Below the pieces are notes generated by a model. The model was not told the DNA's origin, made no database searches, and saw nothing but the letters and a program-made list of their open reading frames with translations. DNA of 64,000 nucleotides from an uncultured Desulfatibacillum sp. (GTDB taxonomy: Bacteria > Desulfobacterota > Desulfobacteria > Desulfobacterales > SpSt-501). The position numbers and the translations under genes are program-made. Of the stretch, positions 1-37,830 are shown piece after piece; within the stretch, counting starts at the first letter, position 1, and each line of letters begins with the position of its first letter. The stretch spans positions 20,656 through 84,655 of the forward strand of contig CAZNKG010000009.1 in the NCBI GenBank assembly GCA_964573635.1, in the 5' to 3' direction.

Positions 1-1
1 A

Positions 2-1060
2 TCCAACATCATCCTGGTGCGCTTCAAACACGAGGATCCCGTCATGGCGGCTGCGGCGGTCAATCGCCTGGCCGAGTCCTACCTGGAGCTGCACGTCGAG
101 GTGCACCGGAGGAATCACTCCACCGAATTCTTCGGGCAGCAATCGGAATTCCTTCAATCGAAGATCGCCAAAACCGAGCAGACGATCATGGACTTGAAAA
201 AGACAACCAACATCACCTCGCTCAAGGATCAACAGTCCCAACTCCTGCGGCAGCACGGTGATCTGCGCAGCGATCTGAACCAGTCGCTCAGCCAGGAGGT
301 CCAGATCGGCCGCCGCATCCGGGAGCTCCGGCAGCAGCTGGCCGCGACTCCGGCCACCATTCCGCAGCGGGTCGAGGAGGAGGTCAACAACCAACTGATC
401 AACACGCTGCAGGGGCGGCTGGTGGAACTCGAACTGCGCGAAAAGGACCTTCTCAACAAGTATAAAGAAGACAGCCGGCTGGTGGTCAACGTCCGCGAGG
501 AGATCGCGGTGGTTCGCCAAAAGCTCGCCGACCAGGAGAAAAGGCTCTACGGACGCAGCATGACGGGCATCAATCCGGCCTATCAGCGCATCCAGGAGGA
601 CCTGCTGAAGAGCGAAACCGACCTGCGGGCAGTCCAGGCGAAGATCAGCAAGTTGAAGGAGCAGCTCGAGGACTACCAACGGGAGCTCGATAAGATTTCG
701 CCGGTTGAGATGGAACTGGACCGATTGGCGCAGCAGCTCGAGGTCGAACGCAACAACTACCGTCTCTATCTTTCGAAATTCGAGGAATCCCGCATATCCT
801 CGGCCATGGATTCCGAGAAAATCACCAACGTCAGCCTGGTGGAGCGGGCCCAACCGGCCCTCAGACCCAGCTCGCCGAGCAAGCTGTTGCTGTTTGCCGC
901 CGGCACCATCATGTCTCTGCTGGCCAGCATCGGTCTGGCGGTGTTCATCGATTGCGTGAGCGACCATGTCGAGAGGCCCGAAGATTTGGAGCGGATCTTG
1001 GATGTTCCGGTGCTGACCTCCATCCCGGATTTCCAACGCCCGCTGGACCCAACCGGATGA
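2..1060 (+). CDS. Polysaccharide co-polymerase / chain-length determinant (Wzz/GumC-like; kinase-less PCP-2b type), 5' end cut by window edge
   Basis: Frame is open back to base 2 (SNIILVRFKHEDP..). Long Q/E/L/R-rich coiled-coil segment typical of PCP periplasmic domains. C-terminal TM helix LLLFAAGTIMSLLASIGLAVFI. A separate kinase-like gene follows. Confidence 0.8.
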   Translation, partial: SNIILVRFKHEDPVMAAAAVNRLAESYLELHVEVHRRNHSTEFFGQQSEFLQSKIAKTEQTIMDLKKTTNITSLKDQQSQLLRQHGDLRSDLNQSLSQEVQIGRRIRELRQQLAATPATIPQRVEEEVNNQLINTLQGRLVELELREKDLLNKYKEDSRLVVNVREEIAVVRQKLADQEKRLYGRSMTGINPAYQRIQEDLLKSETDLRAVQAKISKLKEQLEDYQRELDKISPVEMELDRLAQQLEVERNNYRLYLSKFEESRISSAMDSEKITNVSLVERAQPALRPSSPSKLLLFAAGTIMSLLASIGLAVFIDCVSDHVERPEDLERILDVPVLTSIPDFQRPLDPTG

Positions 1061-1202
1061 AAGGTCAGGCGGAAGCCTATCGGCGTGATGCACCCCATCG
1101 GTCACACGCCCGATTGTCGGCTGAGATGGAAGAAGGCCTCGACGGGGAGGGAGCTTCTTCCGGGAAGAGCGAGTCCGGGTAGTCCGGGAGAAGGGTGGGG
1201 TG

Positions 1203-1952
1203 ATGGCGAAACGCAGGAAGCATGGCGAGCCGGCCGGAGACGAGGCACAGTCTATCTTTTTCCAGCCGGTGCCGTATTCAGAAAAAGCCCTCCAACCCTA
1301 TGTCCAAAATTTCAACCTGCCGCGCCTGGCGGCGGAGTGGTGCCAGGAGCTGCGCTCCCGCCTGTTGCTGCTATCCAATGAGAAAATAATCAAAACGATT
1401 GTGTTCACCGGCGCCTGCCCGGGATGCGGCAACACCACCAGCGTCGCCTGGTTCGCACTTTATCTGGCCAGTATTTTGAAAAAGAAGGTCTTGCTGCTGG
1501 ATTTGAACTTGAGGTCGCCGGGGTTGCATCGGTTTTTCAACCACCCGGGCGTGCGTGGGCTGCGGGATGCGATCGATCGGGAGAAAACCCCGCCGCTCGA
1601 ATTCCTCAACACGTTGCAAGGAAACCTGTGCCTGGTGACCTGCAACGATCATGGAGACAACGAGACACCGGCCATCCTGCATTCCGAAGAGTTCAACGCG
1701 TTTCTGTCGAAATGCCGAGAGGAATACGATTATGTGCTGATCGACTCGGCGCCGGTAGTGACCAACGCCGAAACGCGCTTGATCAGCAGCTTCGTCGACG
1801 GGGTGGTTCTGCTGGTGGAATCGGAGCGCAGCCGCAGCGAGGTCGTCCGGCGCGCCAAGACGGAGATCGAGCGCAGCGGCGCGAGCTTTCTGGGAGCGAT
1901 CCTCAACCGGCGCAAGTTCCACATCCCCGGTTGGCTCTACAAGCGGCTATGA
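1203..1952 (+). CDS. CpsD/CapB-type BY-kinase-like P-loop protein with degenerate Walker A (probable pseudokinase)
   Basis: IVFTGACPGCGNTTSVA at the Walker A position (Lys replaced by Asn). VLLLDLNLRSP (Walker A'). YVLIDSAPV (Walker B). No C-terminal Tyr cluster. ATG 1203 preferred over GTG 1200. Confidence 0.75.
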   Translation: MAKRRKHGEPAGDEAQSIFFQPVPYSEKALQPYVQNFNLPRLAAEWCQELRSRLLLLSNEKIIKTIVFTGACPGCGNTTSVAWFALYLASILKKKVLLLDLNLRSPGLHRFFNHPGVRGLRDAIDREKTPPLEFLNTLQGNLCLVTCNDHGDNETPAILHSEEFNAFLSKCREEYDYVLIDSAPVVTNAETRLISSFVDGVVLLVESERSRSEVVRRAKTEIERSGASFLGAILNRRKFHIPGWLYKRL

Positions 1953-2043: not shown

Positions 2044-2784
2044 ATGAGAGCGAAAGCGATGTTGTGCCTCCTGTTGCTGGGGCTGATCGCTGTCCTGAAT
2101 GGATGCGCGCATTCGCCGGCGGGCGCACCGGCGGCCGCCGGGCCGGCAGCGGCAGCGGCCCCGACCGCTTCGATTGGAGGGGGCTTGCCTCCCTACCGGA
2201 TTCAACCGGGTGATGCCCTGGAAGTGAAGTTCTTTTATAATCCGGAGCTTAATGAGTCGGTGACCGTCCGACCGGACGGCCTCATTTCGCTGCAATTGGT
2301 CGACGAAGTCCTGGCAGCCGGCCTGCAGCCCGCCGAATTGGATGCGCTGCTAACCGAGAAATACGCGCGGGAGCTGAAGAAACCGGTCGTCACGGTGATC
2401 GTCCGATCGTTCGGCGGTCAGCGCGTATACGTCGGCGGAGAGGTGGCGCAGCAGGGGCTCATTACCATGGCCGCCGGAATGACGCCGCTTCAGGCGATCA
2501 TGCAGTCCGGGGGGTTCAAGGTGACGGCTCAGCCGAGCGAGACCATCATCATCCGCAAAGGGGCGGACCGGCGGCCGGTTCCATTCCGGATCGATCTCAA
2601 CGCGCAGCTCGAAGGCGGCACCCCGGCGGAGGAGTTCAGGCTGCAGCCCGATGACATCGTCTTCGTGCCCAAGTCGACGATCGCCAAGCTCAACCAGTTC
2701 GTGAACCAATACGTCGAACAGCTGTTCCTATTCCGCGGGATCAGTTTGGGGTTTGGATATCAGTTGAACAACAACGACGACTAA
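2044..2784 (+). CDS. Polysaccharide export outer-membrane lipoprotein (Wza-like; Poly_export + SLBB)
   Basis: Lipoprotein signal LLLLGLIAVLNGC. YRIQPGDALEVKFFYNPELNESVTVRPDGLISLQLV and VYVGGEVAQQG motifs. GGAGGGGGGAG Shine-Dalgarno sequence before ATG 2044. Confidence 0.85.
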   Translation: MRAKAMLCLLLLGLIAVLNGCAHSPAGAPAAAGPAAAAAPTASIGGGLPPYRIQPGDALEVKFFYNPELNESVTVRPDGLISLQLVDEVLAAGLQPAELDALLTEKYARELKKPVVTVIVRSFGGQRVYVGGEVAQQGLITMAAGMTPLQAIMQSGGFKVTAQPSETIIIRKGADRRPVPFRIDLNAQLEGGTPAEEFRLQPDDIVFVPKSTIAKLNQFVNQYVEQLFLFRGISLGFGYQLNNNDD

Positions 2785-2860: not shown

Positions 2861-3277
2861 ATGTCATTTCTCCACGCCTTGCAGAATTACCTGAATGGCG
2901 CGAGAGGAGCGGGGCTGGAATCGGCGGCGCCGGTCGTTGCCCCGAGCGAATTCCGGCGGTTGATCCTCAAAGAGCGTGACCGCGCGGGGCGCAATGACAA
3001 GGTTTTCTCTCTGGTGCTCGTTGAAGCCCGGTCCTCCAATCACCGGCCGACGAGAAACCATCGCCTCGCACAAATTCTTGCCAGGCAGTTGCGCAACCTC
3101 GACGCCATCGGTTGGTTCGACGAAACCCGACTGGGAATTTTGCTGCCCTACACCCCGCGCGACGGCGCTCATCAGGTGCTGGAGCGCATCCGGGAGGCGC
3201 TCAAGGATGTCGGCGGGATTCACTGCGAGATCTATACCTATCCCGACCAGAGGCTTTTCGAAATGGGAGGAGAATAG
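2861..3277 (+). CDS. Degenerate GGDEF-like domain protein (GGDEF replaced, RxxD I-site-like motif retained)
   Basis: VFSLVLVEA...RQLRNLDAIGWFDETRLGILLPYTPRDGAHQVLERIREAL aligns by eye to the GGDEF fold. RNLD sits at the I-site position, DETRL replaces GGDEF, and the metal/substrate-binding segment is deleted. The stop lies 4 nt before the priming transferase. Confidence 0.6.
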   Translation: MSFLHALQNYLNGARGAGLESAAPVVAPSEFRRLILKERDRAGRNDKVFSLVLVEARSSNHRPTRNHRLAQILARQLRNLDAIGWFDETRLGILLPYTPRDGAHQVLERIREALKDVGGIHCEIYTYPDQRLFEMGGE

Positions 3278-3280: not shown

Positions 3281-4063
3281 ATGGAGAGCCAGCCGTTTTG
3301 CGCGGGCGGTAGGTCACCGACGACGGCCTGGGTCGACGAAGGCAGCGGCAGCGGTCAAGCGCTGCTCGCGGTGCTCTCTCGGAAGAGCATCTCGCCTTTC
3401 TTCACTTCAAGGCTCCCGCTGTGGAAGCGAACGACCGACATTACGCTTTCGTGCATCCTGCTATTGATCCTCTGGCCGCTGTTTTTGATGATAGCCGCCG
3501 GCATCAAGCTCTCCTCTCCGGGTCCGGTGTTCTATCGGCAACAGCGCGTCGGCAACGGCGGCCAGCTCTTCGAATTGATCAAATTCCGCACCATGTCGGC
3601 CGGGTGCGATCCAACCCGCCACCGGCAATATTGGCATGCTTTGATCGACCGGGATGGGTCGGCCGGCGCCGAAGGTGCCACCATGAAGAAACTCGATGAC
3701 GGGAACCCGGACATTTTTCCTTTTGGACGGATTTTGCGCCGATCGAGCCTCGATGAGCTGCCGCAGCTTATCAATGTGCTGCGGGGTGAGATGAGCCTCG
3801 TTGGACCGCGGCCGCCGATACCCTACGAGGCGGCGGCCTACGGCGGATGGCATAACGGTCGCTTCGACGCTGTGCCGGGCATGACCGGGCTTTGGCAAGT
3901 GAGCGGCAGAAACCGTCTCACGTTTGCCGACATGGTGCGCCTTGATATCCGCTACGCACGGCACTTGAGCCCCATGCTGGACATCAAAATCCTGCTGCGG
4001 ACGCCGATGGCCGTGATGCGTGATTTCCAGCGCGCCGCATCGACCGGCGAGCCAGCCAGATGA
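3281..4063 (+). CDS. Undecaprenyl-phosphate sugar-phosphate transferase (bacterial sugar transferase family, priming enzyme)
   Basis: TM helix ILLLILWPLFLMIAAGI. SPGPVFYRQQRVGNGGQLFELIKFRTM. DELPQLINVLRGEMSLVGPRPP. Confidence 0.9.
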   Translation: MESQPFCAGGRSPTTAWVDEGSGSGQALLAVLSRKSISPFFTSRLPLWKRTTDITLSCILLLILWPLFLMIAAGIKLSSPGPVFYRQQRVGNGGQLFELIKFRTMSAGCDPTRHRQYWHALIDRDGSAGAEGATMKKLDDGNPDIFPFGRILRRSSLDELPQLINVLRGEMSLVGPRPPIPYEAAAYGGWHNGRFDAVPGMTGLWQVSGRNRLTFADMVRLDIRYARHLSPMLDIKILLRTPMAVMRDFQRAASTGEPAR

Positions 4064-4076
4064 CGGAGGCAACGAC

Positions 4077-5144
4077 GTGACGGCGGCGCCTGTCAACGTT
4101 GCGGTCGTCGGATGCGGATACTGGGGGCCGAACCTGGTCCGCAATTTCCTGTCTCTCTCCGATTGCCGCGTTCTGCAAGCCTGCGACTGTTGCCCGGAGC
4201 GGCTGCAGCACATGCAGGGATTGTATCCCCAGGTGCAGGCGACCATCTGCTTCGATGATGTGGTTCGCGACGAACGGGTCGATGCGGTGGCTATCGCGAC
4301 GCCGGTTCGCTGGCACTTCGAGATGGCCAAGCGGTGCTTGGAGGCCGGCAAGCATGTTTTCATCGAGAAGCCCATGGCCGCTTCGGTCGCCGAATGCCGG
4401 ATGCTTCTGAAGATCGCTGAGGCGCGGCAGCGAGTGATCTTCGTCGGCCACACGTTCATTTATTCTCCCGCCGTGCGCCGGATCCGAGAAATCATCCAGG
4501 CCGGCGAGCTCGGCGAAATCCAGTACATCAGCGCCCGGCGGCTTAACCTCGGGCTCTTCCAAAAAGACATCAACGTGGCCTGGGATCTCGCGCCCCACGA
4601 CATCTCGATCATTCTGTATGCGCTGAAGAAGCGGCCGGTCGCGGTGAACTGCCAGGGCAAGGCGCATGTGCACCCGCAGATCGAGGATGTGACCAGCATG
4701 ACGCTGCATTTCGATAACGGCGGGCTCGCAACGATCCAAAGCAGTTGGCTGGACCCCAACAAGGTGCGTGACATGACCTTCGTCGGGAGCCGCAAGATGC
4801 TGCTCTACAACGACCTGGAGCCAAACGAGAAGATCAAGATCTACGACAAGCGCGTCGAGCGCCCGCCGCATTACGACACTTTCGCTGAATTCCACTTTTC
4901 ATATCACTACGGAGATATGTACTCGCCTTACTTGCGGCAATACGAACCGCTGCGCATGCAGTGTCAGCATTTTCTCGATTGTCTGCGGACGGGTGAGACG
5001 CCGGAAACGAGCGGCTACGACGGCCTGCAGGTGGTTGAAATCCTCGAGGCGGCTACCTGCTCGCTGCGTCAAAAAGGGGCTGAAGTCGATCTCGGTCGTG
5101 GGGCTGCCGGCGGCGATGCCACGACGTTTCAGGCAGATGGATGA
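4077..5144 (+). CDS. Gfo/Idh/MocA-family sugar-nucleotide oxidoreductase
   Basis: Rossmann N-terminus VNVAVVGCGYWGPNLVRNF and EKPMA motif. GTG 4077 has a GGAGG 8 nt upstream. The ORF-track start at 4020 would overlap the previous gene. Confidence 0.8.
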   Translation: MTAAPVNVAVVGCGYWGPNLVRNFLSLSDCRVLQACDCCPERLQHMQGLYPQVQATICFDDVVRDERVDAVAIATPVRWHFEMAKRCLEAGKHVFIEKPMAASVAECRMLLKIAEARQRVIFVGHTFIYSPAVRRIREIIQAGELGEIQYISARRLNLGLFQKDINVAWDLAPHDISIILYALKKRPVAVNCQGKAHVHPQIEDVTSMTLHFDNGGLATIQSSWLDPNKVRDMTFVGSRKMLLYNDLEPNEKIKIYDKRVERPPHYDTFAEFHFSYHYGDMYSPYLRQYEPLRMQCQHFLDCLRTGETPETSGYDGLQVVEILEAATCSLRQKGAEVDLGRGAAGGDATTFQADG

Positions 5145-5650
5145 ATACCGAGGCGTCTGCGGATCCGACGCGCCGCATCGCCGCCGATGTGACCCTCGGC
5201 GAAGGCGTGCGGATCTTTAGCTTCGTCAACCTGTATGGCTGCACGGTCGGCGCCCACTCCCAGATCGGCGCCTTCGTGGAGATCCAGAAAGGTGCGGTCA
5301 TCGGCCGGCGCTGCAAAATTTCGAGCCACTCATTCATCTGCGAAGGCGTAACCGTCGAAGATGAGGTGTTCATCGGCCACAACGTGACCTTCACGAACGA
5401 CCGGTACCCGCGGGCCACAACCGCTGCTGGTTGCATGCAGTCGGCGCAGGACTGGACGTGCATCAAGACGAGGGTGCGAAGGGGGGCCTCGATCGGCTCC
5501 GGGGCGACCATTCTGTGCGGGGTCACCATCGGTGAACAGGCCATTGTCGGGGCGGGCAGTGTCGTCGTTCGCGATGTACCGGCGCACGGCGTCGTCGCCG
5601 GAAATCCGGCCCGCATCCTCCGAGTGCTGGAAGCTCGAGGCCGGCCATGA
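5141..5650 (+). CDS. Left-handed beta-helix (hexapeptide repeat) sugar N-acetyltransferase
   Basis: Hexapeptide repeats. FIGHNVTFTNDRYPRA ... GASIGSGATILCGVTIGEQAIVGAGSVVVRDVPAHGVVAGNPARI. ATGA overlap with the oxidoreductase. Confidence 0.8.
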   Translation: MNTEASADPTRRIAADVTLGEGVRIFSFVNLYGCTVGAHSQIGAFVEIQKGAVIGRRCKISSHSFICEGVTVEDEVFIGHNVTFTNDRYPRATTAAGCMQSAQDWTCIKTRVRRGASIGSGATILCGVTIGEQAIVGAGSVVVRDVPAHGVVAGNPARILRVLEARGRP

Positions 5651-5789
5651 ATGCGCCCCATCTCGGTCTCGGAGGCGCGGAAGCCGCTCGTTATCGGAGT
5701 TAATCGACCGGGCGATCGGTCGGCGGATCGATCCATGCGCCTTTGCCGAACGCCGTCTTTACCCCTCTGCGGGGCGTCGCCCCGGTGCA

Positions 5790-5888
5790 CGCTTCGGCCG
5801 AACGGCCGACCATGATGCGGTGAAGGACACGGTCCGGCGCCAAGGACCGGGAAGGTTCGAAGACGCTTCGCAGATCCATGGCGCCGGC
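5790..5888 (+). pseudogene. Possible short remnant of a DegT/DnrJ/EryC1/StrS-type sugar aminotransferase
   Basis: RFGRTADHDAVKDTVRRQGPGRFEDASQIHGAG resembles the conserved H-x-x-G-x-x-x-D-M-D-x-I ... I-E-D-A-A-Q-A-H-G-A block. It lies in a 350-nt gap with no supported CDS, directly after the oxidoreductase/acetyltransferase pair. Confidence 0.25.
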
Positions 5889-6000
5889 CAGCAGAGGCGG
5901 CGGAGCGGCCGGTGCGAGCGTTTGCGCCTGCCGAGGCCCGGTGTTCTAGCAAAAGCCAGCGCCCCAGGACGGCCTGGGGGCAAAGACAGATTCGTGCAAT

Positions 6001-26907: not shown

Positions 26908-26911
<4 letters not shown>

Positions 26912-29900: not shown

Positions 29901-30276
29901 CGCCCCCCGGTTTGACGGAGAGGACCGGGGGGCTTACGTGGCGCCGCGCAGCGAGACCGAACGGCGCGTCGCCGCCGTCTGGGAGGCGGTGCTGGGTCGC
30001 GGGCCCGTCGGCATACGGGAATCGTTTTTTGAACTCGGCGGGCATTCGCTGCTGCTCCCGCGGGTGCTGCGTCGGCTGCGGCAGGAGCTCCATGCGGAAC
30101 TGTCGCTGGTCAACCTCTTTCAATATCCCAGCGTCGCCGCGCTGGCGGAATACATCGACGCCATCCATCATCCGGAGATCACCCCCGAAAAAACACGCGA
30201 TCGGGCCGCCAGGCAGATCGCCTCGCTGAAGCGGCAGAAACGGCTGCCTGCCGCGCCGAGAAAGGCCAATGACTGA
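26908..30276 (+). CDS. Nonribosomal peptide synthetase module: C - A - PCP
   Basis: See the domain features below. ATGA overlap with the upstream PKS. Confidence 0.92.
27004..28317 (+). other. Condensation domain
   Basis: SHNQSALWFLYQL; HHIAFDGWS (27394-27414). Confidence 0.85.
28405..29892 (+). other. Adenylation domain, by-eye specificity code DVWHFSLVDK (Ser-type)
   Basis: LAYIIFTSGSTGKPKGV; FSFDVSVWE; ITTLHFVPSM; VFCSGEAL; NLYGPTEAAVDV; YKTGDLCRY; NGKVDRKAL. Confidence 0.85.
29944..30162 (+). other. PCP domain
   Basis: FFELGGHSLLLPRVLRRL. Confidence 0.85.
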
Positions 30277-33200
30277 AGCACCGACCGAATTCGCGGAGGA
30301 AGCGCTTGAGCCCATTGCGGTCATCGGCATCGCCTGCCGCTTTCCGGGTGCGGCCGACCGGGAGCAGTTCTGGCGAAACTTGTGCGGCGGCGTCGAATCC
30401 ATCCGCCATTTCAGCGAGGAGGAGCTGCGCGGCCGCGGATTGCCCGAAGAGTGGATGCGTCATCCCCGGTTCGTCAAGGCCGGGACGATCCTGGAGGATG
30501 TCGACCGTTTTGACGCCAAGTTTTTTGGTTTCAGCCCGCGGGAGGCTCTGATCACGGATCCTCAGCACCGCCTTTTTCTGGAAACGTCGTGGGAGGCGCT
30601 TGAGGATGCCGGGTATGTCCCGGGGGCCATTCCCGACCCCGTGGGAGTATTCGCCGGCGTCAACCAGAACCACTACCGCCCCCTGGTGGAGCCGCTGGCA
30701 TCCCCGCACGACACGGCCGAAGAGCTCGAGCTGCTGTTCGGAAACGAAAAGGATTTCCTGGCGACGCGGGTCTCTTACAAGCTCAACCTGACAGGTCCCA
30801 GCCTCAGCGTGCAGACGGCCTGCTCGACCTCTCTGGTGGGCGTCGGTCTGGCCTGCCAGAGCCTGTGGAGCTATCAGTGCTCGATGGCGCTCGCGGGGGG
30901 CGTTACGGTCAACCTGCGCCATGTCAACGGCTATTTTTTTCAAGAGGGGGCCATCCTGTCGCCTGACGGCCACTGCCGGGCGTTCGACGCCCGCGCGGCC
31001 GGCACCGTCATCGGGCAGGGAGTCGGGGTCGTCGTTATCAAGCGCCTCGCGGACGCGCTGAGGGATGGCGACCATATTTACGCCGTGATCCGAAGCTGCG
31101 CCATCAACAACGACGGGGCCGCGAAGGTCGGCTTTACCGCGCCCAGCGTCGAGGGCCAGTCCGAGGTGATCACGATGGCGCACGCATTGGCCGGCATCTC
31201 CGCTGAATCGATCGGCTACATCGAGGCGCACGGCACCGGCACCCGGCTGGGCGACCCGATTGAAGTCGCGGCGCTGACCCGCGCTTTCCGCGCCACGACG
31301 TCGCGCAAAGGATTCTGCGCCATTGGGTCCGTCAAGACCAACATCGGCCATGCCGATGCCGCCGCCGGAATCGCCGGCCTGATCAAGACCGCCCTGATGC
31401 TCGAACGCCGCACGCTCGTTCCAAGCCTCAATTACACGGCGCCGAACCCCGAGATCGATTTCGAATCCAGCCCGTTCTACGTCAGCCGCTGCCGCTGCCC
31501 CTGGAAGGCCGATGGGCATCCGCTCCGGGCCGGCGTCAGCGCCTTCGGTATCGGCGGAACGAACTGCCACGTCGTGCTGGAGGAGCCTCCGCAGGTCGAT
31601 CCCTCCGGCCCCTCCCGGCCCGAGCAGTTGATTCGGCTGTCCGCCCGAAGCCCCGAGGCGCTCAAACGGGCCGCCGGGCGCTTGGCGTCCGCTTTAAGGG
31701 CGCAGCCCGAGATGCATCTCGCCGATGTCGCTTTCACCCTGCACCTCGGACGCCACGATTTCAATTGCCGGGGCATGCTGGTGTGCCGGGACGCGGCGGC
31801 GGCCTGCGAGATTCTGGAGCGATACGATGACCCGCGATGGGTATGGCGCGTGCAGACGCGTCGCGACCCGCCGCTCGCTTTCATGTTCTCGGGCCAAGGA
31901 TCGCAGCATGCCGGCATGGGCCGCCAGCTTTACCAAACAGAACCCGCCTTCCGGCAGGCGCTCGACCGCTGCGCCGAGGTTCTGGGGCCGCACCTCCCGT
32001 GGGATCTGCGGGAGGCGCTTTTCCCGCCGCCGGCCGAAGCGGCGACCTCACGCCGCGATCTGCGATCGACCGATCTGGCCCAGCCCGCGCTGTTCGCGGT
32101 CGAATACGCGCTGGCGCAGCTGTGGATGTCCTGGGGCATCCAACCGGAGGCGATGATTGGACACAGCATCGGCGAATATGTCGCCGCATGCCTTGCCGGC
32201 GTCTTCAGCCTGGAAGATGCGCTTGCGCTGGTCGCCGACCGCGGGCGGCTCATGCGGGGGCTCCCCGAGGGTTCGATGGCGGCCGTGCCGCTCGCGGAGG
32301 ACGATCTGCGCCGGCTGGCGGGCGGCAGGCTCGATATCGCGGCGGTGAATGCGCCCGAGCTGTGCGTCGTGTCGGGGGAGAGCGCGGTGGTGGCGGAATT
32401 CGTTCGGGAGCTGGAAGCGAACGGCCGGTCATGCCGGCGGCTGCATCTCTCCCACGCTTTTCACAGCCGCATGATGGATCCGATCATCGATCGCTTTATC
32501 GAGCGGGTCTCCCGGGTGCCTCGGCATCAGGCCCGAATCCCGTTTCTCTCCAACCTGACGGGCACCTGGATCACGCCGCAGCAGGCCGTCTCGGAAGAAT
32601 ATTGGGGCCGGCATCTCCGGCAGACCGTGCGCTTTGCCGACGGCGTGCGCGTGCTTCTCGACCAATCAGAACGCATCCTCTTGGAGGTTGGCCCCGGCAG
32701 CGCGCTTTGTACGCTCGCCCGTCAGCAGGCAGGCGCCGGCGGCCGCGTCATTCTGCCGTCACTGCCCCATCCCCAGGCGGGAGTGAGCGATGAAGAGGCC
32801 GTGCAGCGATGCCTGGGCAGACTGTGGTTGGAGGGTGTACAGCCGGACTGGCGCCGCTATTATGCCGGTGAGCACCGGCGGCGGGTTTCTCTGCCCACTT
32901 ATCCTTTCGAGCGCGAAAGGTTCTGGCCGAGTTCCCCTGCGGCCGACACCGAAGGCCGCGCCGCGCCGGTCCCCGGTGCGTGGGGGGGTGCGCCCGGTGT
33001 CGTCGCCGAGGCGCCGCCCCCGGACTTTGAAAAGAGCGGCTTCGTCCGCAGGGATGACCCCGGCGGCGGCGCCTCCCGTCCGCGGAACTCCCTGGAGCAG
33101 GAGCTGCGGTCGATCTGGCAAGCCGTTCTGGGCTGCGACCAGGTCGGGCTGCATGACGATTACTTCGAACTTGGAGGAACCTCGCTCCGCGCCGCACGGC

Positions 33201-34240
33201 TGTTTTCCGAAATCGAAAGGCGCCTGGGAAAACGGATTCCGTTGTCCGTGCTTCTTCAGGCGCCGACGGTGGCCCGCTTGGCGGAGGTCATCAGCGACTC
33301 CGGCGGCGCGGCCCGCTGGCCGTCATTGGTCCCCATGCAGGTCCAAGGCTCCAACCCGCCCTTTTTCTGCGCCCATGGCGCGGGTGGAAACATCCTGATC
33401 TACCGGGACTTGGCCCGGCATCTGGGCCCGGATCAGCCGTTCTACGGGCTGCAGTCCCGGGGCCTCGACGGCCTGCAGCCGTTCCATGTTCGGATCGAGG
33501 ACATGGCGGCTCACTACATCGAAGAAATCCGGCAGGTCCAGCCCTGCGGCCCATATTACCTGGGCGGGTACTGTATGGGAGGCACGATCGCCCTGGAGAT
33601 GGCCCAGCAGCTGCATGCTCAAGGTGAAACCGTGGCGCTGCTGGCGTTTTTCGAGACCTATAACTGGGGTGAGATCGAGCCGCCCAACTGGGCCGGGAAA
33701 TTCTTCTTTTACTGGCAGAAAATCGATTTTCACCTGCGCAATCTCCTGCTCGCCGAGAACCCCACCGACTTCTTCAGGGAGAAGCTGAGAGTCGCCGGCG
33801 AGCGCAGCTCTTTATGGCGGGAGACGCTGACCAGCCTTCTGCGCAACGGCCGTTCCGCGGGGGTGGAGGCGGAAAGAGGGCTGCACCGGCTCTGGGAAAT
33901 CAACGACCGCGCAGCCATGGGGTACGTTCATCGCTACTATCCCGGCCGCATCACTCATTTCAGCCCCCGCAGGCCTTACGCCTTGTTCAATCATCCGCCG
34001 GTCCGCTGGCATCGCCTCGCGGCCGGCATCGATGAGCGCCGGCTGCCCGTCTACCCGGCCGGCATGTTGGTCGAGCCTTTTGTAAAGCGGCTGGCCGCCG
34101 AACTGCGGTCCTGCATCGAAGAGCAAGCGCGGCGCTTCGAATCGAGCCCATCAAGCTTGTTGGCGCCTGCGGCCGGTCGGCAGCGGCGGGCGCCGGGCAC
34201 CGAGAGCGGCGGTTCCGATGCAGCGCGGACCCCCGCCTAA
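30269..34240 (+). CDS. Type I polyketide synthase terminal module: KS - AT (malonyl-type) - carrier - thioesterase-like
   Basis: See the domain features below. The start overlaps the NRPS stop by 8 nt. Confidence 0.92.
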   Translation: MTEAPTEFAEEALEPIAVIGIACRFPGAADREQFWRNLCGGVESIRHFSEEELRGRGLPEEWMRHPRFVKAGTILEDVDRFDAKFFGFSPREALITDPQHRLFLETSWEALEDAGYVPGAIPDPVGVFAGVNQNHYRPLVEPLASPHDTAEELELLFGNEKDFLATRVSYKLNLTGPSLSVQTACSTSLVGVGLACQSLWSYQCSMALAGGVTVNLRHVNGYFFQEGAILSPDGHCRAFDARAAGTVIGQGVGVVVIKRLADALRDGDHIYAVIRSCAINNDGAAKVGFTAPSVEGQSEVITMAHALAGISAESIGYIEAHGTGTRLGDPIEVAALTRAFRATTSRKGFCAIGSVKTNIGHADAAAGIAGLIKTALMLERRTLVPSLNYTAPNPEIDFESSPFYVSRCRCPWKADGHPLRAGVSAFGIGGTNCHVVLEEPPQVDPSGPSRPEQLIRLSARSPEALKRAAGRLASALRAQPEMHLADVAFTLHLGRHDFNCRGMLVCRDAAAACEILERYDDPRWVWRVQTRRDPPLAFMFSGQGSQHAGMGRQLYQTEPAFRQALDRCAEVLGPHLPWDLREALFPPPAEAATSRRDLRSTDLAQPALFAVEYALAQLWMSWGIQPEAMIGHSIGEYVAACLAGVFSLEDALALVADRGRLMRGLPEGSMAAVPLAEDDLRRLAGGRLDIAAVNAPELCVVSGESAVVAEFVRELEANGRSCRRLHLSHAFHSRMMDPIIDRFIERVSRVPRHQARIPFLSNLTGTWITPQQAVSEEYWGRHLRQTVRFADGVRVLLDQSERILLEVGPGSALCTLARQQAGAGGRVILPSLPHPQAGVSDEEAVQRCLGRLWLEGVQPDWRRYYAGEHRRRVSLPTYPFERERFWPSSPAADTEGRAAPVPGAWGGAPGVVAEAPPPDFEKSGFVRRDDPGGGASRPRNSLEQELRSIWQAVLGCDQVGLHDDYFELGGTSLRAARLFSEIERRLGKRIPLSVLLQAPTVARLAEVISDSGGAARWPSLVPMQVQGSNPPFFCAHGAGGNILIYRDLARHLGPDQPFYGLQSRGLDGLQPFHVRIEDMAAHYIEEIRQVQPCGPYYLGGYCMGGTIALEMAQQLHAQGETVALLAFFETYNWGEIEPPNWAGKFFFYWQKIDFHLRNLLLAENPTDFFREKLRVAGERSSLWRETLTSLLRNGRSAGVEAERGLHRLWEINDRAAMGYVHRYYPGRITHFSPRRPYALFNHPPVRWHRLAAGIDERRLPVYPAGMLVEPFVKRLAAELRSCIEEQARRFESSPSSLLAPAAGRQRRAPGTESGGSDAARTPA
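30305..31588 (+). other. KS domain (module 4)
   Basis: EPIAVIGIACRFPG; VQTACSTSL; IEAHGTGTRLGDPIE; VKTNIGHADAAAG. Confidence 0.9.
31871..32704 (+). other. Intact acyltransferase domain, HAFH (malonyl-CoA-type) motif
   Basis: LAFMFSGQGSQHAGMG; GHSIGEYVAA (Ser codon 32165-32167); AAVNAPELCVVSG; LSHAFHSRMM; LLEVGPG. Confidence 0.9.
33080..33292 (+). other. Carrier (T) domain, PCP-like
   Basis: DDYFELGGTSLRAARLFSEIE. Confidence 0.8.
33317..34123 (+). other. Thioesterase-fold domain with Cys at the nucleophile position
   Basis: PFFCAHGAGGNILIYRDLARHLGPDQPFYGLQ; YYLGGYCMGGTIALEMAQQL (TGT codon 33572-33574 where GxSxG Ser is expected). No recognisable GDH motif near the C-terminus (VYPAGMLVEP). 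Confidence 0.75.
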
Positions 34241-34257
34241 AGGGAGATGACCGGCTC

Positions 34258-35241
34258 GTGTCCCTGTCGAAAGCACTCACCGGCCTGTACTATCTCGTGA
34301 AGCCGGCCATACCCCGCAGTTTGCAGCTGCGGATGCGCCGAGCCATGATTGCGAGAAAGCGGCCGCGAGTGGCCAACCGCTGGCCGATTCTTGAAGCGGC
34401 GGGTGAAAAGCCCGACGGATGGCCCGGGTGGCCGCAGGGCAGGCAGTTTGCTTTCGTCCTGACCCACGATGTGGACACGGCGCGCGGGCAGAATCGGTGC
34501 CGTCGCTTGATGGAGATGGAGATGGCGCTGGGACTGCGGTCGTCATTTAACTTCGTTCCCGAGCGCTACCCCGTAGACCGCGAACTGCTTCGTCTGCTTC
34601 AGCGCAACGGTTTCGAGGTGGGCGTCCACGGCTTGAACCACGACGGGCGGCTTTTTTCGTCGCGCCGGCTTTTCCGGGAACGGGCGCGCCGGATCAATCA
34701 TTACCTCAGCGCTTGGCAGGCCGAGGGATTTCGGGCTCCGGCGATGCACCGGGAGCTCAATTGGCTCCATGATCTGATGATCGCGTACGACAGCTCGACA
34801 TTCGACACGGATCCATTTGAGCCGCAACCCGAAGGCGTGGGCACCATCTTCCCCTTTTGGGTGCCCGGACCGGAAAATCGCGGGGGCTATGTCGAGCTGC
34901 CGTATACCCTGCCGCAGGATTTTACCCTGTTTGTGCTGATGGCGGAACGCACGCTGGAGATTTGGGCCCGGAAGCTTTCGTGGATTGCGGCGTGCGGGGG
35001 TATGGCGCTCATGAATACCCACCCGGATTACATGAACTTCGAGTCCCGCCCCTGCGCGCCGGAGGAATACCCCGCAGCTTATTACCGGCAGTGGCTGGAA
35101 CATGTTCGGGAAAAATACCACGGACGGTATTTCAGCGTTTTGCCCAGGGAGTTGGCGCGGTATTGGAAAGCCCACTGCCGGCGGCCCTCCCGTTCGTTTC
35201 CAGTGACGGAGAAAGCCGAGATTGCGGAAGCTCGACCATGA
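34258..35241 (+). CDS. Polysaccharide deacetylase-like (CE4-like) protein
   Basis: FVLTHDVDT (Asp-Asp-type motif) and GVHGLNHD (HxxxH). Confidence 0.7.
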   Translation: MSLSKALTGLYYLVKPAIPRSLQLRMRRAMIARKRPRVANRWPILEAAGEKPDGWPGWPQGRQFAFVLTHDVDTARGQNRCRRLMEMEMALGLRSSFNFVPERYPVDRELLRLLQRNGFEVGVHGLNHDGRLFSSRRLFRERARRINHYLSAWQAEGFRAPAMHRELNWLHDLMIAYDSSTFDTDPFEPQPEGVGTIFPFWVPGPENRGGYVELPYTLPQDFTLFVLMAERTLEIWARKLSWIAACGGMALMNTHPDYMNFESRPCAPEEYPAAYYRQWLEHVREKYHGRYFSVLPRELARYWKAHCRRPSRSFPVTEKAEIAEARP

Positions 35242-36520
35242 GAGAATCGGGCGGCGGCGTTTCCTAAACCTGACCGGCGCCGCCGGTGCTGCGGCGGCTT
35301 TGGCGATGGGAGTGGATTGCACAACGGCCAAAGAGCTGTTCAACCGCCTTCGGAGCCGCTTCAGCCGGCCGGAGGCCGCGCCGCCGGAACACCTGCGAAC
35401 CCTCGCGCGGCTGCCGCCCGAGGGCCCGTCGGTTCCGTTGGAGACCGCCCTGAACTCGCGCTGCACCAGCGATGACGACGGTCGTTGCGAGCTCTTTCAC
35501 TGGGGTCTCTTTGACACCCAGTCGCGGCTCAGTCCCGAGCAGATCGCGCAGGTGGTGGGGCTCGTCAGAGTTCCGCGGTTCACCGACCGGCCGGTCGGCC
35601 TGACCGCCCAAGGCAATATCCTCACGTTCACGGTGGAACGCGGGGCCGATGAAACGCTCATGACCTGGCTGATGATCGAGAGCGGGATGCAGCAGCAGGC
35701 CTTGTGCCTGATCTGCGCGGCGCTCGGCGTGGGAATGGTTTTTGAGAATCTGGGTCCGAAGGGAAGGCCATTGTCCGAAAGGGAGCATGGCTGCGTTCGG
35801 GTGCGGCTGGATCCGATGAGGCCCTCCTATGCGGGGGCTTTCTGGACGGTGACGCCGCCGGCTGGCAGCCGGCCTTGGCGCCGTGGCAGCCTCCCCGATC
35901 CAGATCGCCAAGGGTCCCGGGCGCTGCTGGCCCTGCTAACCCAGGGACGAACCGCGAACCGCCAGGGGGTGGACCTCACGGAACAGAGCCTCAGTCAGGT
36001 GCTTTGGGCCGCCCGCGGCCGAACCCCGCACTTGTACAAATCGAGGCACTGGGGGATGACCATCCCGACCTGGGGGGGGGAGCAGCACATCTCGTGCATT
36101 TACACCGTCTCCTCGGAGGCGGTTTGCCGGTACGTCAATTGGCGGGACGACCATCCCACCCACGCGCTGGAACCGATCCGGCTCCAAGGCGGCCAGATAC
36201 TGCGCCGGCTGAAACCCTACGGGGCGGAAGGCGATGAGGTGCTGGTCATCGCCGGCAATGAGGATTCGCCACGGGCCCTTTGGGAAATCGGCTACCAATT
36301 GCTCAATATGCTGCTTCAGTCCCACAGCTTGGACCTCCACTACCAGGCCGTTCTGTTCGGCCATGAGCCGCGCGCGATACTTCAGGAAGCCGGCGTGACC
36401 GGAGCGCAGGCGGCCATCGCCTTCCGCCGGAGCGCAATGCGGCCGGCAGCAGACTGTGGGAAAGCAAGTGTCAGGCCGTCAGCCAAGGCGCGCGGCGGTT
36501 CGGAACCTGGCGCAATATAA
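35222..36520 (+). CDS. Tat-signal protein with tandem nitroreductase-like (SagB/ThcOx-like) folds
   Basis: Twin-arginine signal IGRRRFLNLTGAAGAAAALAMG. LETALNSRCTS ... ESGMQQQALCLICAALGVG in the first half. LSQVLWAARGRTPH ... ALWEIGYQLLNMLLQSHSLDL in the second half. TTG start (no in-frame ATG nearby). Confidence 0.55.
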   Translation: MRKLDHERIGRRRFLNLTGAAGAAAALAMGVDCTTAKELFNRLRSRFSRPEAAPPEHLRTLARLPPEGPSVPLETALNSRCTSDDDGRCELFHWGLFDTQSRLSPEQIAQVVGLVRVPRFTDRPVGLTAQGNILTFTVERGADETLMTWLMIESGMQQQALCLICAALGVGMVFENLGPKGRPLSEREHGCVRVRLDPMRPSYAGAFWTVTPPAGSRPWRRGSLPDPDRQGSRALLALLTQGRTANRQGVDLTEQSLSQVLWAARGRTPHLYKSRHWGMTIPTWGGEQHISCIYTVSSEAVCRYVNWRDDHPTHALEPIRLQGGQILRRLKPYGAEGDEVLVIAGNEDSPRALWEIGYQLLNMLLQSHSLDLHYQAVLFGHEPRAILQEAGVTGAQAAIAFRRSAMRPAADCGKASVRPSAKARGGSEPGAI

Positions 36521-36630
36521 GCTGGATGGGAGCCGACCGAAGAGCCGCGCCGTGCAGGCTTGCGTCCTGAGAGGCCGCAAGTCCACCGGCTGCTAAACCA
36601 TCACGGAGTCACCCGGGTCACCTCAATCGT

Positions 36631-37830
36631 ATGAAGCCGCTCCACATCGCCCACATCGCCCCTTATTATTATCCGAGCGTAGGGGGCGTGGAATACACGG
36701 TGCAGCACCTGGCTGAAAGCCTTTCCGCCCGCGGCCATCAGGTCGATGTGCTGACCACGCTGAGGTCGAACCAGCCGCACAAGCGTCCACTGATGCGCTC
36801 GATCGATCGCCTCAACGGCGCCAACGTCTACCGATACCCAAGCTGGATGTCCGTCGGTCATATGAGTTTCTTTCCGGGTATTTGGAGGCGGCTGGCGCGC
36901 GAGCACTATGAGATCGTGCATATGCACGCGCTGCGCCATCCCCATACCTTGATCGGCCTTTTGAGCGCCTTGAGGCATCGATCGGCGGCCGTCCTTCAAG
37001 GGCACTCGCATTTCATCGCCGGCCTGCCCGTGAAAAACCTGATCTACAAATGCTTCGACGCGCTTGTTTTCCCGACATGCTATCGAAAACTGGCCGCTGT
37101 GGTCGCCCTCACCCGTTCCGAAAAAGAAGGCTTCATCCAGCGCCGGATCCGCCCGTCACAGATAGAAGTGATCCCCAATGCGGTTCGAGAACCGTTTTTT
37201 CACCCGCAAGACCCGTCGTCCTTTCAGGAGAAGCATCGGCTGGACGGGAAAAAGGTATTGCTTTTTTTGGGGCGTATCGTGCCCGACAAGCGCGTCGACC
37301 TGATCATACGCGCGCTGCCCGATGTGGTGAACCAGGTGCCCTCGGCCGTCTTCGTGGCGGCCGGCCCCCAGCAGGAAAATTGCCGTCGCTACATTCGGTT
37401 GGCTTCGGATCTTGGGGTTGGCGATCGCGTGAGGTTCGTCGGCGAACTGGACGAGGACGAGAAGCGGCAGGCCCTCACCGCGGCGGATGTATTTGTTCTG
37501 GCTTCGGACTATGAAGCGTTCGGTTTGGGAATCGCCGAAGCGATGGCAGCGGGCAAGCCGGTAATCGCCACACGGACCCCGGGGCCGATGGAGATCGTGC
37601 GGAACGGGACTACCGGCTTGTTGGTGGACAGGAATTCTCCGGCTGCGATCGCCGAAAAGGCGATCCTGCTGTTACAACACATCGGCTTCGCCCGGGCGCT
37701 GGGGGAAGCAGGCCGGCGCCACGCGCTCGAGAAGTTCAGCCCGCAGAAGGTGATCCTGCAGGTTGAACACCTGTACTACCGCCTCGCCGCCCAGCGCGCC
37801 GCTCGCTTCGCCGGGCGTTTCAAAATATAG
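36631..37830 (+). CDS. Glycosyltransferase family 4 (GT-B)
   Basis: MKPLHIAHIAPYYYPSVGGVEYTVQHLAESLSARGHQVDVLT; VLASDYEAFGLGIAEAMAAGKPVI. Confidence 0.88.
   Translation: MKPLHIAHIAPYYYPSVGGVEYTVQHLAESLSARGHQVDVLTTLRSNQPHKRPLMRSIDRLNGANVYRYPSWMSVGHMSFFPGIWRRLAREHYEIVHMHALRHPHTLIGLLSALRHRSAAVLQGHSHFIAGLPVKNLIYKCFDALVFPTCYRKLAAVVALTRSEKEGFIQRRIRPSQIEVIPNAVREPFFHPQDPSSFQEKHRLDGKKVLLFLGRIVPDKRVDLIIRALPDVVNQVPSAVFVAAGPQQENCRRYIRLASDLGVGDRVRFVGELDEDEKRQALTAADVFVLASDYEAFGLGIAEAMAAGKPVIATRTPGPMEIVRNGTTGLLVDRNSPAAIAEKAILLLQHIGFARALGEAGRRHALEKFSPQKVILQVEHLYYRLAAQRAARFAGRFKI

Follow-up and report, generated by a model that had tools for sequence, protein, structure and literature searches.

The 64,000-nucleotide (nt) window analyzed here (the whole stretch, positions 20,656 to 84,655 of contig CAZNKG010000009.1 from an uncultured Desulfatibacillum sp.) holds most of a polysaccharide-biosynthesis island of ~41 kb, in which exopolysaccharide (EPS) genes of the Wzx/Wzy type enclose a hybrid line of polyketide synthase (PKS) and nonribosomal peptide synthetase (NRPS) enzymes. 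The island extends from a PAS-LuxR/PilZ gene pair left of the window to the end of a GT4 glycosyltransferase gene at 37830. We propose, with middling confidence, that the product of this line is a pyrrolyl-diketide-Ser-malonyl acyl group and that it serves as a decoration or an anchor of the exported glycan, installed by a deacetylate-then-acylate route that would use a deacetylase-family protein resembling carbohydrate esterase family 4 (CE4-like) and a thioesterase (TE) with a Cys nucleophile. The genes of the predicted line and the two genes that follow it are listed below (KS, ketosynthase; AT, acyltransferase; KR, ketoreductase; ACP, acyl carrier protein; C, condensation domain; A, adenylation domain or enzyme; PCP, peptidyl carrier protein).

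15443 to 16270, plus strand: Sfp/HetI-type phosphopantetheinyl transferase (PPTase; PF01648, PF22624; NF042922 HetI, E 6e-50)
16251 to 17396, plus strand: L-prolyl-S-PCP dehydrogenase, a PigA/PltE/Bmp3/AnaB-like flavoenzyme (NF053553 PigA, 473 bits against a cutoff of 500)
17393 to 18907, plus strand: free-standing proline-activating A enzyme, PltF-like (PDB 6o6e, PltF, E 8e-146)
18912 to 19169, plus strand: prolyl carrier protein, 85 amino acids (aa), PltL/PigG/Bmp1-CP-like (PDB 6cxt_A, E 3e-13; PltL, E 6e-12)
19176 to 22442, plus strand: PKS module 1 with KS, dead AT stub, and ACP (Pfam KS and PP-binding; GHSIG replaced by LVSRA)
22433 to 26911, plus strand: PKS module 2 with KS, dead AT stub, KR, and ACP (Pfam KS, KR, and PP-binding; GHSIG replaced by GVGPG)
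26908 to 30276, plus strand: NRPS C-A-PCP with predicted serine activation (Pfam; HHIAFDG motif; code DVWHFSLVDK)
30269 to 34240, plus strand: PKS module 3 with KS, malonyl-type AT, ACP, and TE with a Cys nucleophile (Pfam; GHSIG, HAFH)
34258 to 35241, plus strand: cytoplasmic CE4-like (NodB-fold) deacetylase-family protein, 327 aa (family profile against PDB 3rxz, E 1.5e-5)
35222 to 36520, plus strand: Tat-signal nitroreductase-fold protein, 432 aa (N terminus RRRFLNLTG; Foldseek 3hj9, E 9e-7)

The first part of the line, an acyl coenzyme A dehydrogenase-fold (ACAD) enzyme with an A enzyme and a PCP, is a classical predicted proline-to-pyrrolyl-S-PCP starter cassette. A preliminary description made from the letters alone had the domain content right and did not recognize the system. 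The dehydrogenase matched PDB entries 6cxt, 5zw0, and 4irn (Bmp3, PigA, and AnaB; E 1e-101 to 1e-109), with PigA and AnaB matching almost equally well. The A enzyme matched PltF, an L-proline-[PCP] ligase, ~90 bits above the next solved A domain; its specificity code, DLLSIAFVCK, is close to the DLLSLALVCK of relatives. Bmp1-CP, PltL, and PigG were the top PDB matches of the 85-aa carrier protein. A Pro A enzyme, a small PCP, an ACAD-fold oxidase, and then a KS are common to the pathways for pyoluteorin (PltF/PltL/PltE), prodigiosin (PigI/PigG/PigA), bromopyrrole (Bmp1-CP/Bmp3), and anatoxin-a (AnaC/AnaD/AnaB). Unlike those cassettes, the one in the window supplies a pair of AT-less PKS modules and, after them, a Ser-NRPS/PKS core in an EPS locus, and the window locus has no halogenase. 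Oxidation would be either two-electron, to a pyrroline as with AnaB, or four-electron, to a pyrrole.

For the first PKS protein, KS1, the only close full-length match was the protein's own sequence. Its KS domain is 57 to 62% identical to those of ~800-aa KS-ACP proteins found after Pro cassettes. Four of the six independent contexts of this Pro-cassette/KS-ACP family lie among glycan genes: the window and loci L037, L005, and L038 (compared loci and records are designated by L numbers). L005 has four GT4 genes upstream and a CE4-like gene plus a hexapeptide transferase (Hex) gene, 54% identical to that of the window, downstream; L038 has genes for a priming sugar-phosphate transferase (PGT) and for FemAB-like, PglD-like, and CapK-like proteins near the Pro cassette. 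A different front end is present in L013 (3884 to 13487), where a methyltransferase, a PCP, an arginase-family enzyme, and an ACAD (42% identical) occur with an A enzyme of code DLFLHSISSK and a 755-aa GNAT-ACP loading protein; a sulfotransferase follows the PKS in that locus. Across loci, the front ends vary and the predicted Ser-plus-malonyl core is constant. A B12-binding radical SAM enzyme is encoded in or beside the Pro cassette in L005 (8176 to 9918) and L119 (16121 to 17914), so that these two versions may have a pyrrole or a chain that is C-methylated.

Pfam scans agreed with the domain strings given in the preliminary description (KS-AT*-ACP, KS-AT*-KR-ACP, C-A-PCP, and KS-AT-ACP-TE), and its AT* domains are real dead stubs of ~120 to 140 residues. 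The stub of module 2 gave a partial Acyl_transf_1 match, at positions 2 to 114 of 319. All three KS domains retain Cys/His/His. A trans-AT PKS was rejected, since there is no discrete AT gene in the island and no active AT other than the one that the last module carries in cis. Two points had been missed earlier, the Ser specificity of the NRPS and the Cys nucleophile of the TE. The specificity code of the NRPS A domain is identical to the Ser code of EntF (PMC3795760), and all five C-A-PCP orthologues (L006, L012, L013, L018, and L023) have the Ser code DVWHISLVDK or DAWHFSLVDK. PDB matches of this A domain do not discriminate its substrate, so that the Ser call rests on the code; a GrsA fragment served as the reference for reading out all codes, and comparison with published codes showed that the Ser codes matched. 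The domain order predicts that the last ACP carries the chain pyrrolyl-CO-CH2-CH(OH)-CH2-CO-NH-CH(CH2OH)-CO-CH2-CO-S.

The TE (33269 to 34240) has the motif GYCMG, whose Cys stands at the position of the Ser in the aligned GWSLG motif from the solved NRPS TE 7crn. The nucleophile was Cys in 10 of 10 TE orthologues (window, L005, L013 to L015, L017, L018, L020, L023, and L035). In the subgroup to which the window TE belongs, the canonical His column is Ala and another conserved His (FHxRN) lies upstream, while the other subgroup keeps FHKN and lacks FHxRN; relocation of the catalytic His in the window's subgroup is possible. Two relatives end their PKS in another way, with domains of ~320 to 370 aa. 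In L012 (17439 to 18389), a GNAT domain (Acetyltransf_9, E 2e-6) stands in place of the TE, and in L006 (18554 to 19675), the TE is replaced by a related C-terminal domain lacking a Pfam assignment, with an exosortase gene directly after it. The Cys-TE in all 10 orthologues, the GNAT swap, and the FemAB-like and Hex neighbors hint at transfer of the chain rather than simple release.

The CE4-like call made earlier was borne out by a family profile that matched the polysaccharide deacetylase 3rxz and by an invariant His/Asp/Arg set in a nine-member alignment (H70, D71, H124, H128, D129, R159, H255, and D257). The single sequence matched nothing in Pfam or PDB, gave only a weak TIGR03006 match in NCBIfam, and has no transmembrane segment and no signal. 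A CE4-anchored search found at least 546 relatives in metagenome contigs. In the 35 loci that had 5 kb or more of flanking sequence, EPS genes were present in 32, a FemAB-like neighbor in 26, and carrier genes in 5; a nitroreductase-like gene was present in none. The CE4-like protein was therefore rejected as a PKS-specific partner. It is a generic member of such EPS loci, and its earlier assignment to the EPS side holds.

The nitroreductase-like protein behaves differently. Its Tat motif and the Foldseek match to 3hj9 agree with the earlier assignment, as does PF00881, which is recorded on several homologues. Further Foldseek matches were 2ymv (a two-domain Acg homologue), 3hoi, and BmdC, an NRPS-associated oxidase. 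The family consensus also has the twin arginine. An exhaustive profile search of 1.84 billion representatives at an E value of ≤1e-30 returned 62 clusters (50% identity), and the family is thus small and sharply bounded; NCBIfam has no model for it. When this family was used as the anchor, 25 genome loci were found, of which 23 were informative; 11 of these have carrier-protein genes and 15 have EPS genes. Carrier genes in 11 of 23 nitroreductase-anchored loci, set against no nitroreductase gene in 35 CE4-anchored loci, indicate that the nitroreductase-like gene tracks the acyl module. The genes downstream of the PKS had been described together as a glycan flank; this stands for the CE4-like gene, whereas the nitroreductase-like gene goes with carrier-protein modules and not with EPS genes generally. 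Members 32 to 34% identical were also seen in two metagenome-assembled genomes (MAGs) of Bathyarchaeia (L032 and L033), where the tblastn panel described below recognized no neighbors.

Neighbors in related loci were annotated with a home-made tblastn panel whose sequences came from the window and from three publicly Pfam-annotated loci. Eight of the 23 nitroreductase-anchored loci (L012, L013, L014, L015, L017, L018, L020, and L023) have an adenylation-carrier module plus a KS-AT-ACP PKS. They include Nitrospirota (L012), Desulfobacteraceae (L015), Syntrophales (L018), Desulfobacterales (L020), and Terriglobia (L023). The full C-A-PCP is present in L012, L013, L018, and L023; L014, L015, and L020 have an A-PCP without the C domain and with a different specificity code, and the L017 module is cut by a contig end. 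A PPTase was recognizable in six of the eight, the exceptions at the panel threshold being L018 and L023. The flanks of the modules include genes for Wzz, kinase, Wza, PGT, GFO, Hex, DegT, GT2/GT4, and FemAB-like and AsnB-like proteins, and FemAB-like and hexapeptide transferases are frequent neighbors in relatives. In the window, L015, L018, and L023, the module lies amid the glycan genes and not at their edge. In a metagenome locus (L006/L007), the Ser-NRPS/PKS pair stands immediately before an exosortase gene. The set of PPTase, C-A(Ser)-PCP, KS-AT-ACP-TE(Cys), CE4-like, and Tat nitroreductase-like genes thus recurs in EPS loci of Desulfobacterota, Nitrospirota, and Acidobacteriota. A second variant, in L008, L010, L011 (cultured Desulfonema magnum 4be13; NZ_CP061800.1, 4.818 to 4.839 Mb), and L027, has ACP, AMP-ligase, (formyltransferase,) ACP, KAS III, and hexapeptide transferase genes in place of the NRPS-PKS and likewise adjoins nitroreductase-like and CE4-like genes.

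The polysaccharide genes on either side of the line are as follows.

17 to 1060, plus strand: Wzz/GNVR co-polymerase, 3′ part of a 521-aa gene (PF13807 GNVR; TIGR03007 pepcterm_ChnLen, 137 bits, below cutoff)
1203 to 1952, plus strand: BY-kinase-like protein (TIGR01007, 93 bits against a cutoff of 108)
2059 to 2784, plus strand: Wza/OPX outer-membrane polysaccharide exporter (PF02563 Poly_export, E 2.4e-21; SLBB)
2861 to 3277, plus strand: 138-aa open reading frame (ORF; public gene call; weak GGDEF-like matches only)
3281 to 4063, plus strand: priming polyprenyl-phosphate sugar-phosphate transferase, the PGT (PF02397 Bac_transf, E 5e-58; TIGR03025, 245 bits)
4020 to 5144, plus strand: GFO/IDH/MocA oxidoreductase, UDP-GlcNAc 3-dehydrogenase-like (PF01408, PF22725; NF040723, 171 bits, below cutoff)
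5141 to 5650, plus strand: left-handed beta-helix sugar N-acetyltransferase, WbpD/PglD-like, the Hex (PF00132 Hexapep, TIGR03570)
5781 to 5909, plus strand: relic of a DegT-type sugar aminotransferase, 43 residues (tblastn with DegT of L015 and L013, E 2e-4)
6001 to 7299, plus strand: Wzy_C-domain membrane protein, polymerase or ligase (PF04932, E 6e-17; at least five hydrophobic segments)
7277 to 8209, plus strand: GT2 glycosyltransferase (PF00535)
8187 to 9680, plus strand: multipass membrane protein, 497 aa, candidate Wzx flippase (at least seven hydrophobic segments)
9718 to 10608, plus strand: GT2 glycosyltransferase (PF00535)
10630 to 11922, plus strand: GT4 glycosyltransferase (PF00534, PF13439)
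11898 to 13193, plus strand: GT4 glycosyltransferase (PF13579, PF13692)
13190 to 14248, plus strand: GINT1_N/GH43-like beta-propeller with an N-terminal membrane anchor (PF24793, E 1e-57; hydrophobic segment 13-31)
14257 to 15393, plus strand: GH8 glycoside hydrolase with a signal-like N terminus (PF01270, E 1e-56; hydrophobic segment 11-29)
36631 to 37830, plus strand: GT4 glycosyltransferase, the last gene of the island (PF00534, E 1e-41; absent in the syntenic relative L035)

Most of the EPS genes named earlier (co-polymerase, kinase-like protein, Wza, PGT, Wzy_C protein, glycosyltransferases, GH43-like protein, and GH8) are as described; the "flippase" has no family match, and the list omitted the GFO-like gene, the Hex gene, and the 138-aa ORF. 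The candidate flippase gave no match in Pfam (E 0.01), in NCBIfam, or by phmmer against PDB (E 10), and a 57%-identical orthologue occupies the same position in L037. The BY-kinase-like protein has the Walker A sequence PGCGNTT, with Asn for Lys, and lacks the C-terminal Tyr cluster that its homologues in L006 and L008 do have; it is probably a pseudo-kinase. The Hex protein is 66% identical to the GFO-adjacent Hex of L008. An intact DegT gene follows GFO and Hex in L013, L015, and L018. In the window, the DegT/WbpE-type relic retains EDASQIHGA aligned to EDACQAHGA, and the 3-amino-sugar branch looks decayed in this organism.

The left end of the island, inspected in the 10 kb upstream of the window (L009), lies ~3.7 kb outside it and comprises the PAS-LuxR regulator, the PilZ protein, and the full 521-aa Wzz. 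The PAS-LuxR and PilZ genes occupy 6301 to 8257 of L009 and are preceded by a divergent ABC/HAD operon. Cyclic di-GMP control of the island is likely, given the PilZ protein and the GGDEF-like matches of the 138-aa ORF. From 17 to 37830, 26 consecutive genes are on the plus strand. All genes supported by Pfam or NCBIfam are among them, as had been claimed at the outset, and public gene calls (L001 and L009) concur, the sole exception being a 59-aa minus-strand call within the 5650-to-6001 gap, which is the only sizeable intergenic gap in the island. Ten of the 12 gene overlaps listed earlier persist with the public starts: 5141/5144, 8187/8209, 11898/11922, 13190/13193, 16251/16270, 17393/17396, 22433/22442, 26908/26911, 30269/30276, and 35222/35241. 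The other two changed: 7253/7299 becomes an overlap of 23 nt (called start, 7277), and 9655/9680 becomes a gap of 37 nt (called start, 9718). An overlap of 44 nt between PGT and GFO (4020/4063) was absent from that list. The EPS-PKS junctions measure 49 nt (15393 to 15443) and 17 nt (34240 to 34258). The start of KS1 is ambiguous, with GTG at 19176 in the public call and ATG at 19356 in the preliminary description.

Transcript breaks at the junctions were rejected. Terminator-like sites numbered 23 against 18.0 ± 4.2 expected and 21 against 16.5 ± 4.6, which is the level of shuffled sequence; promoter-like counts were also at shuffle level, and neither kind of consensus site fell inside the junctions. 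Such consensus scans are weak evidence either way. GC content at third codon positions (GC3) was 0.69 to 0.84 across the island, in EPS and PKS genes alike, versus 0.91 to 0.97 in the genes for U32 peptidase, enolase (eno), and CTP synthase (pyrG), with a step from ~0.77 to the housekeeping level at the 37830/38368 boundary. Since GC3 is uniform over the island, amino acid composition accounts for the higher overall GC seen in the PKS genes. The island is compositionally one unit, distinct from the core genome.

Exact copies of the A enzyme are recorded on a JGI metagenome contig of 158,746 bp (3300037465) and on a few more contigs from this organism, and an exact record also exists for the kinase-like protein. 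The window's CTP synthase is 84 to 90% identical to proteins of MAGs labeled Desulfobacterales or Syntrophobacterales, which places the host among uncultured Desulfobacterota. The MAG GCA_975971425.1 (PyrG 84% identical) has the same super-locus on two contigs (CDLUNX010000379.1 and CDLUNX010000231.1). One reads X497 (57%)-GT2 (62%)-GT4 (58%)-GT4 (54%)-GINT1_N (54%)-GH8 (58%)-ACAD (71%)-A (66%)-PCP (55%)-KS-ACP (62%)-large PKS and then ends. The other starts within KS-AT-ACP-TE (61%) and continues CE4-like (63%)-nitroreductase-like (47%)-PEGA-U32-dCache/HAMP-eno-pyrG. Both EPS-PKS junctions, whose conservation the preliminary description had proposed to check, are kept at the same chromosomal site. 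The GH8-ACAD junction of the relative lacks the PPTase, its terminal GT4 is missing, and the middle of its line is a KS-AT-DH-type PKS and not KS-KR-ACP. DNA identity over the island is 66 to 70%, and island proteins are 47 to 71% identical versus 84% for PyrG. From this pattern, the site looks like a fixed chromosomal hot spot for the exchange of surface-polymer genes, and junctions and site that are conserved while contents drift are what would be expected of a functional surface-polymer island.

Together, these results lead us to propose the following course of events. A Wzx/Wzy-type pathway (PGT, two GT2, three GT4, the Wzy_C protein, the candidate flippase, Wzz, the pseudo-kinase, and Wza) would make and export a glycan, with the GH8 and GH43-like proteins acting as periplasmic trimming enzymes. 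Proline would be loaded on the 85-aa PCP and oxidized to pyrrolyl- (or pyrrolinyl-) 2-carboxyl-S-PCP. Two malonyl units would then be joined on by the pair of AT-less PKS modules, so that the chain has one keto and one hydroxyl group; serine would come from the C-A-PCP, and KS-AT-ACP-TE would add the last malonyl unit. The CE4-like enzyme may then deacetylate an N-acetyl-hexosamine in the lipid-linked repeat unit and so expose its amine, and the Cys-TE, or in some relatives the GNAT-like domain in its place, may pass the pyrrolyl-diketide-Ser-malonyl chain on to this amine or to a different nucleophile of the glycan. After flipping, the Tat-exported nitroreductase-fold protein, a predicted flavoprotein, might modify the substituent in the periplasm; the Tat signal, which the family consensus retains, implies such a periplasmic step. 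The back half (Ser-NRPS, KS-AT-ACP-TE, CE4-like, nitroreductase-like, and PPTase) would be an ancient module recurring in EPS loci, and the proline/pyrrole front half would be a lineage-specific cap replacing simpler acyl donors used elsewhere. We favor deacetylation followed by acylation because of the gene content, the periplasmic address of the nitroreductase-like protein, the TE-to-GNAT replacement, and the analogy with LpxC/LpxD and NodB/NodA.

Several points weigh against attachment to the glycan. The window encodes no enzyme of demonstrated acyl-to-sugar transfer activity, and the usual outcome of TE action is a free product. Members of the Pro-cassette/KS family are also found in ordinary biosynthetic gene clusters (BGCs) without glycan genes (L003 and L119), the DegT that normally accompanies GFO and Hex is only a relic, so that the logic of sugar modification is apparently partly decayed, and the AlphaFold model of the nitroreductase-like protein is moderate (pLDDT 60, pTM 0.63). 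The recurrence figures are conditional on the chosen anchor proteins and on a small home-made panel. A serious, if less probable, alternative is a free small molecule (for example, a lipo-amino acid, a delta-lactone, or an N-acyl-5-hydroxymethyl tetramic acid) whose genes are co-inherited and co-regulated with the EPS genes and which is never attached to the glycan. Such a product might serve as a signal, surfactant, or antibiotic in the biofilm matrix, and the line would be a thiotemplate counterpart of the EPS-linked N-acyl amino acid synthases. The line is self-contained, with PPTase, starter cassette, and terminal TE; the Pro cassettes of L003 and L119 do without glycan genes; the order C-A-T, KS-T-TE, PPTase is that of the reutericyclin pathway (PMC8210680), which also counts against attachment; and N-acyl amino acid synthase genes reported near PEP-CTERM/exosortase EPS genes (Craig et al. 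2011, as cited in PMC7293339) show that free acyl-amino-acid lipids can be linked to EPS loci. A free product leaves unexplained a Tat-exported family of predicted flavoproteins confined to such modules and a GNAT-like domain ending the PKS in some relatives. Pfam scans found no small-molecule transporter encoded in the island, and the position of the module amid glycan genes in four loci also argues against this reading.

It is unlikely that the product is instead a lipid end-group, an anchor or primer present as one acyl-Ser-ketide per chain that tethers the glycan to the outer membrane or serves as a chain-finishing acceptor. The Wzy_C protein could be a ligase, PF04932 being common to O-antigen ligases too; a periplasmic nitroreductase-like enzyme fits periplasmic ligation or maturation; and relatives without the front end probably use fatty acyl donors on their leading C domain, with a lipid as the expected result, as L018 and L023 lack an upstream acyl-activating gene. 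The predicted cap in the window, a short polar pyrrolyl-diketide, would be a poor membrane anchor, and the Pfam scans found no lipid transporter and no Wzi-like protein in the island; decoration and anchor would look alike at the sequence level. Fortuitous adjacency, with a mobile BGC landing in a variable surface-polysaccharide hot spot without functional tie, is the least probable case and appears very improbable. It would be in keeping with the compositional break beside conserved housekeeping genes and with the 47 to 71% identity of island proteins, typical of exchangeable surface loci, against 84% for PyrG. Against it stand the equal GC3 of EPS and PKS genes, both junctions conserved at 66 to 70% DNA identity, an association seen independently in several phyla with varying gene order, and the absence of a tRNA, integrase, or repeat boundary in the window. 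Insertion by a mobile element was rejected, as the window has no tRNA, no Rfam match, and no integrase. The comparative data support a thiotemplate product that belongs functionally with the glycan and make a fortuitous neighbor very unlikely; conserved junctions, shared GC3, and recurrence in at least three phyla uphold the earlier claim that the PKS/NRPS genes are not an unrelated neighboring BGC. Within that frame, assembly-line acylation of the glycan remains the reading that we prefer.

Among characterized systems, the closest in enzyme order makes reutericyclin and mutanocyclin, with RtcN (C-A-T), RtcK (KS-T-TE), and a PPTase, the TE cyclizing the product to a tetramic acid (PMC8210680). 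As in that pathway, an acylated amino acid on an NRPS would receive one malonyl extension from a one-module PKS with TE, and the cluster has its own PPTase. The window line differs in using Ser and not Leu, in having its own AT in the PKS, in the Cys nucleophile of its TE, and in lying among polysaccharide genes of Gram-negative environmental bacteria; Pfam scans found no PhlABC-type acetylation genes in the island and, unlike in reutericyclin, no resistance transporter. According to PMC7293339, which cites Craig et al. 2011, N-acyl amino acid synthase genes adjoin PEP-CTERM/exosortase EPS genes, with a suspected and unexplained link. The window resembles such loci of environmental Gram-negative bacteria (the stieleriacine cluster) in placing acyl-amino-acid genes beside EPS or exosortase genes, as L006/L007 also does. 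Those synthases are single GNAT-like enzymes acting on acyl-ACP, whereas the window has a thiotemplate NRPS-PKS and a ketide unit.

XrtA/PEP-CTERM-associated EPS loci were reportedly described by Haft and coworkers in 2006. In NCBIfam, XrtA-system models (those concerned being TIGR03007, TIGR03018, TIGR03027, TIGR03006, TIGR03097, and TIGR03098) ranked first for Wzz, Wza, the kinase-like protein, the Wzy_C protein, and the CE4-like protein, and relatives carry exosortase, FemAB-like, AsnB-like, and AAA_22 genes. Membership in the XrtA/PEP-CTERM system was rejected, because all matches were below cutoff (TIGR03007, 137/279 bits; TIGR03018, 82/231; TIGR03027, 118/180; TIGR03006, 27/276; TIGR03097, 45/188) and no exosortase was found in the window genes by Pfam or NCBIfam, or by tblastn with the L006 exosortase over the window and 10 kb upstream. 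Lipid A synthesis (LpxC and then LpxD) and Nod factor synthesis (NodB and then NodA, with NodF/NodE making the acyl chain) proceed by deacetylation and then acylation. The island shares with them a deacetylase-family gene beside carrier-based acyl-chain synthesis and glycosyltransferases, as a mechanistic analogy only; it differs in having no dedicated NodA or LpxD homologue and in a CE4-like protein that is generic even where there is no acyl module. The Pks13 TE transfers mycolate to trehalose, a precedent for TE off-loading onto a sugar, and was among the PDB matches of the window TE. Mycobacterial glycopeptidolipid loci also combine PKS/NRPS and glycosyltransferase genes in one locus for a surface glycoconjugate, but with MmpL export, an unrelated envelope, and no Wzx/Wzy, co-polymerase, or OPX genes.

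The components are of known kinds, namely, a Wzx/Wzy EPS pathway, a pyrrole starter cassette, and an NRPS-PKS. What appears to be undescribed is the recurrence of these components together, along with the Cys-TE clade and the Tat nitroreductase-fold protein as a dedicated partner, and a limited literature search found no description of a PKS/NRPS module within EPS, Wzy, or exosortase loci. We put forward, only tentatively, the wider view that there is a widespread, so far unrecognized class of EPS with thiotemplate-built N-acyl-seryl-ketide substituents, installed by Ser-NRPS/KS-AT-ACP-(Cys-TE or GNAT) and the CE4-like protein and matured in the periplasm by the Tat nitroreductase-fold enzyme. 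If this is true, the window is its most elaborate version, with a proline-derived pyrrolyl-diketide cap, and a new route joins assembly-line chemistry to Wzx/Wzy glycan assembly. Non-sugar substituents set the physical and biological behavior of matrix polysaccharides and are normally acetyl, pyruvyl, or succinyl groups or single amino acids; an NRPS-PKS module in anaerobic sediment and soil bacteria would add assembly-line acyl groups to these. It could also supply the chemistry behind the link of acyl-amino-acid genes to exosortase/PEP-CTERM loci. A free tetramic acid-type lipid, should that be the product instead, would still be a new biofilm-linked metabolite family. The narrowly distributed Tat family of predicted flavoproteins, the TE clade with the Cys nucleophile, and cultured Desulfonema magnum with its related module are targets for biochemistry.

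Beyond 37830, a minus-strand gene for a PEGA protein is followed by genes for U32 peptidase, enolase, CTP synthase, a GlmS-like protein, MetG, HolB, LptD, SurE, and CysK-CysS. The presence of LptD indicates a diderm envelope. Three genes of this run were placed as follows.

46522 to 50253, minus strand: GlmS-like protein, 1,243 aa (GATase plus SIS; ~300 aa N-terminal of the GATase unassigned)
51089 to 52996, minus strand: MetG (third-position GC)
55759 to 58140, minus strand: LptD (third-position GC)

Plus-strand ORFs of 1,492, 971, and 1,235 aa between 46.6 and 59 kb were rejected as giant proteins, GC3 marking them as antisense artifacts of high GC. At 59700 to 61937 on the plus strand, one ORF without an intervening stop joins a PALP cysteine synthase domain to a complete cysteinyl-tRNA synthetase and represents either a CysK-CysS fusion or a read-through.

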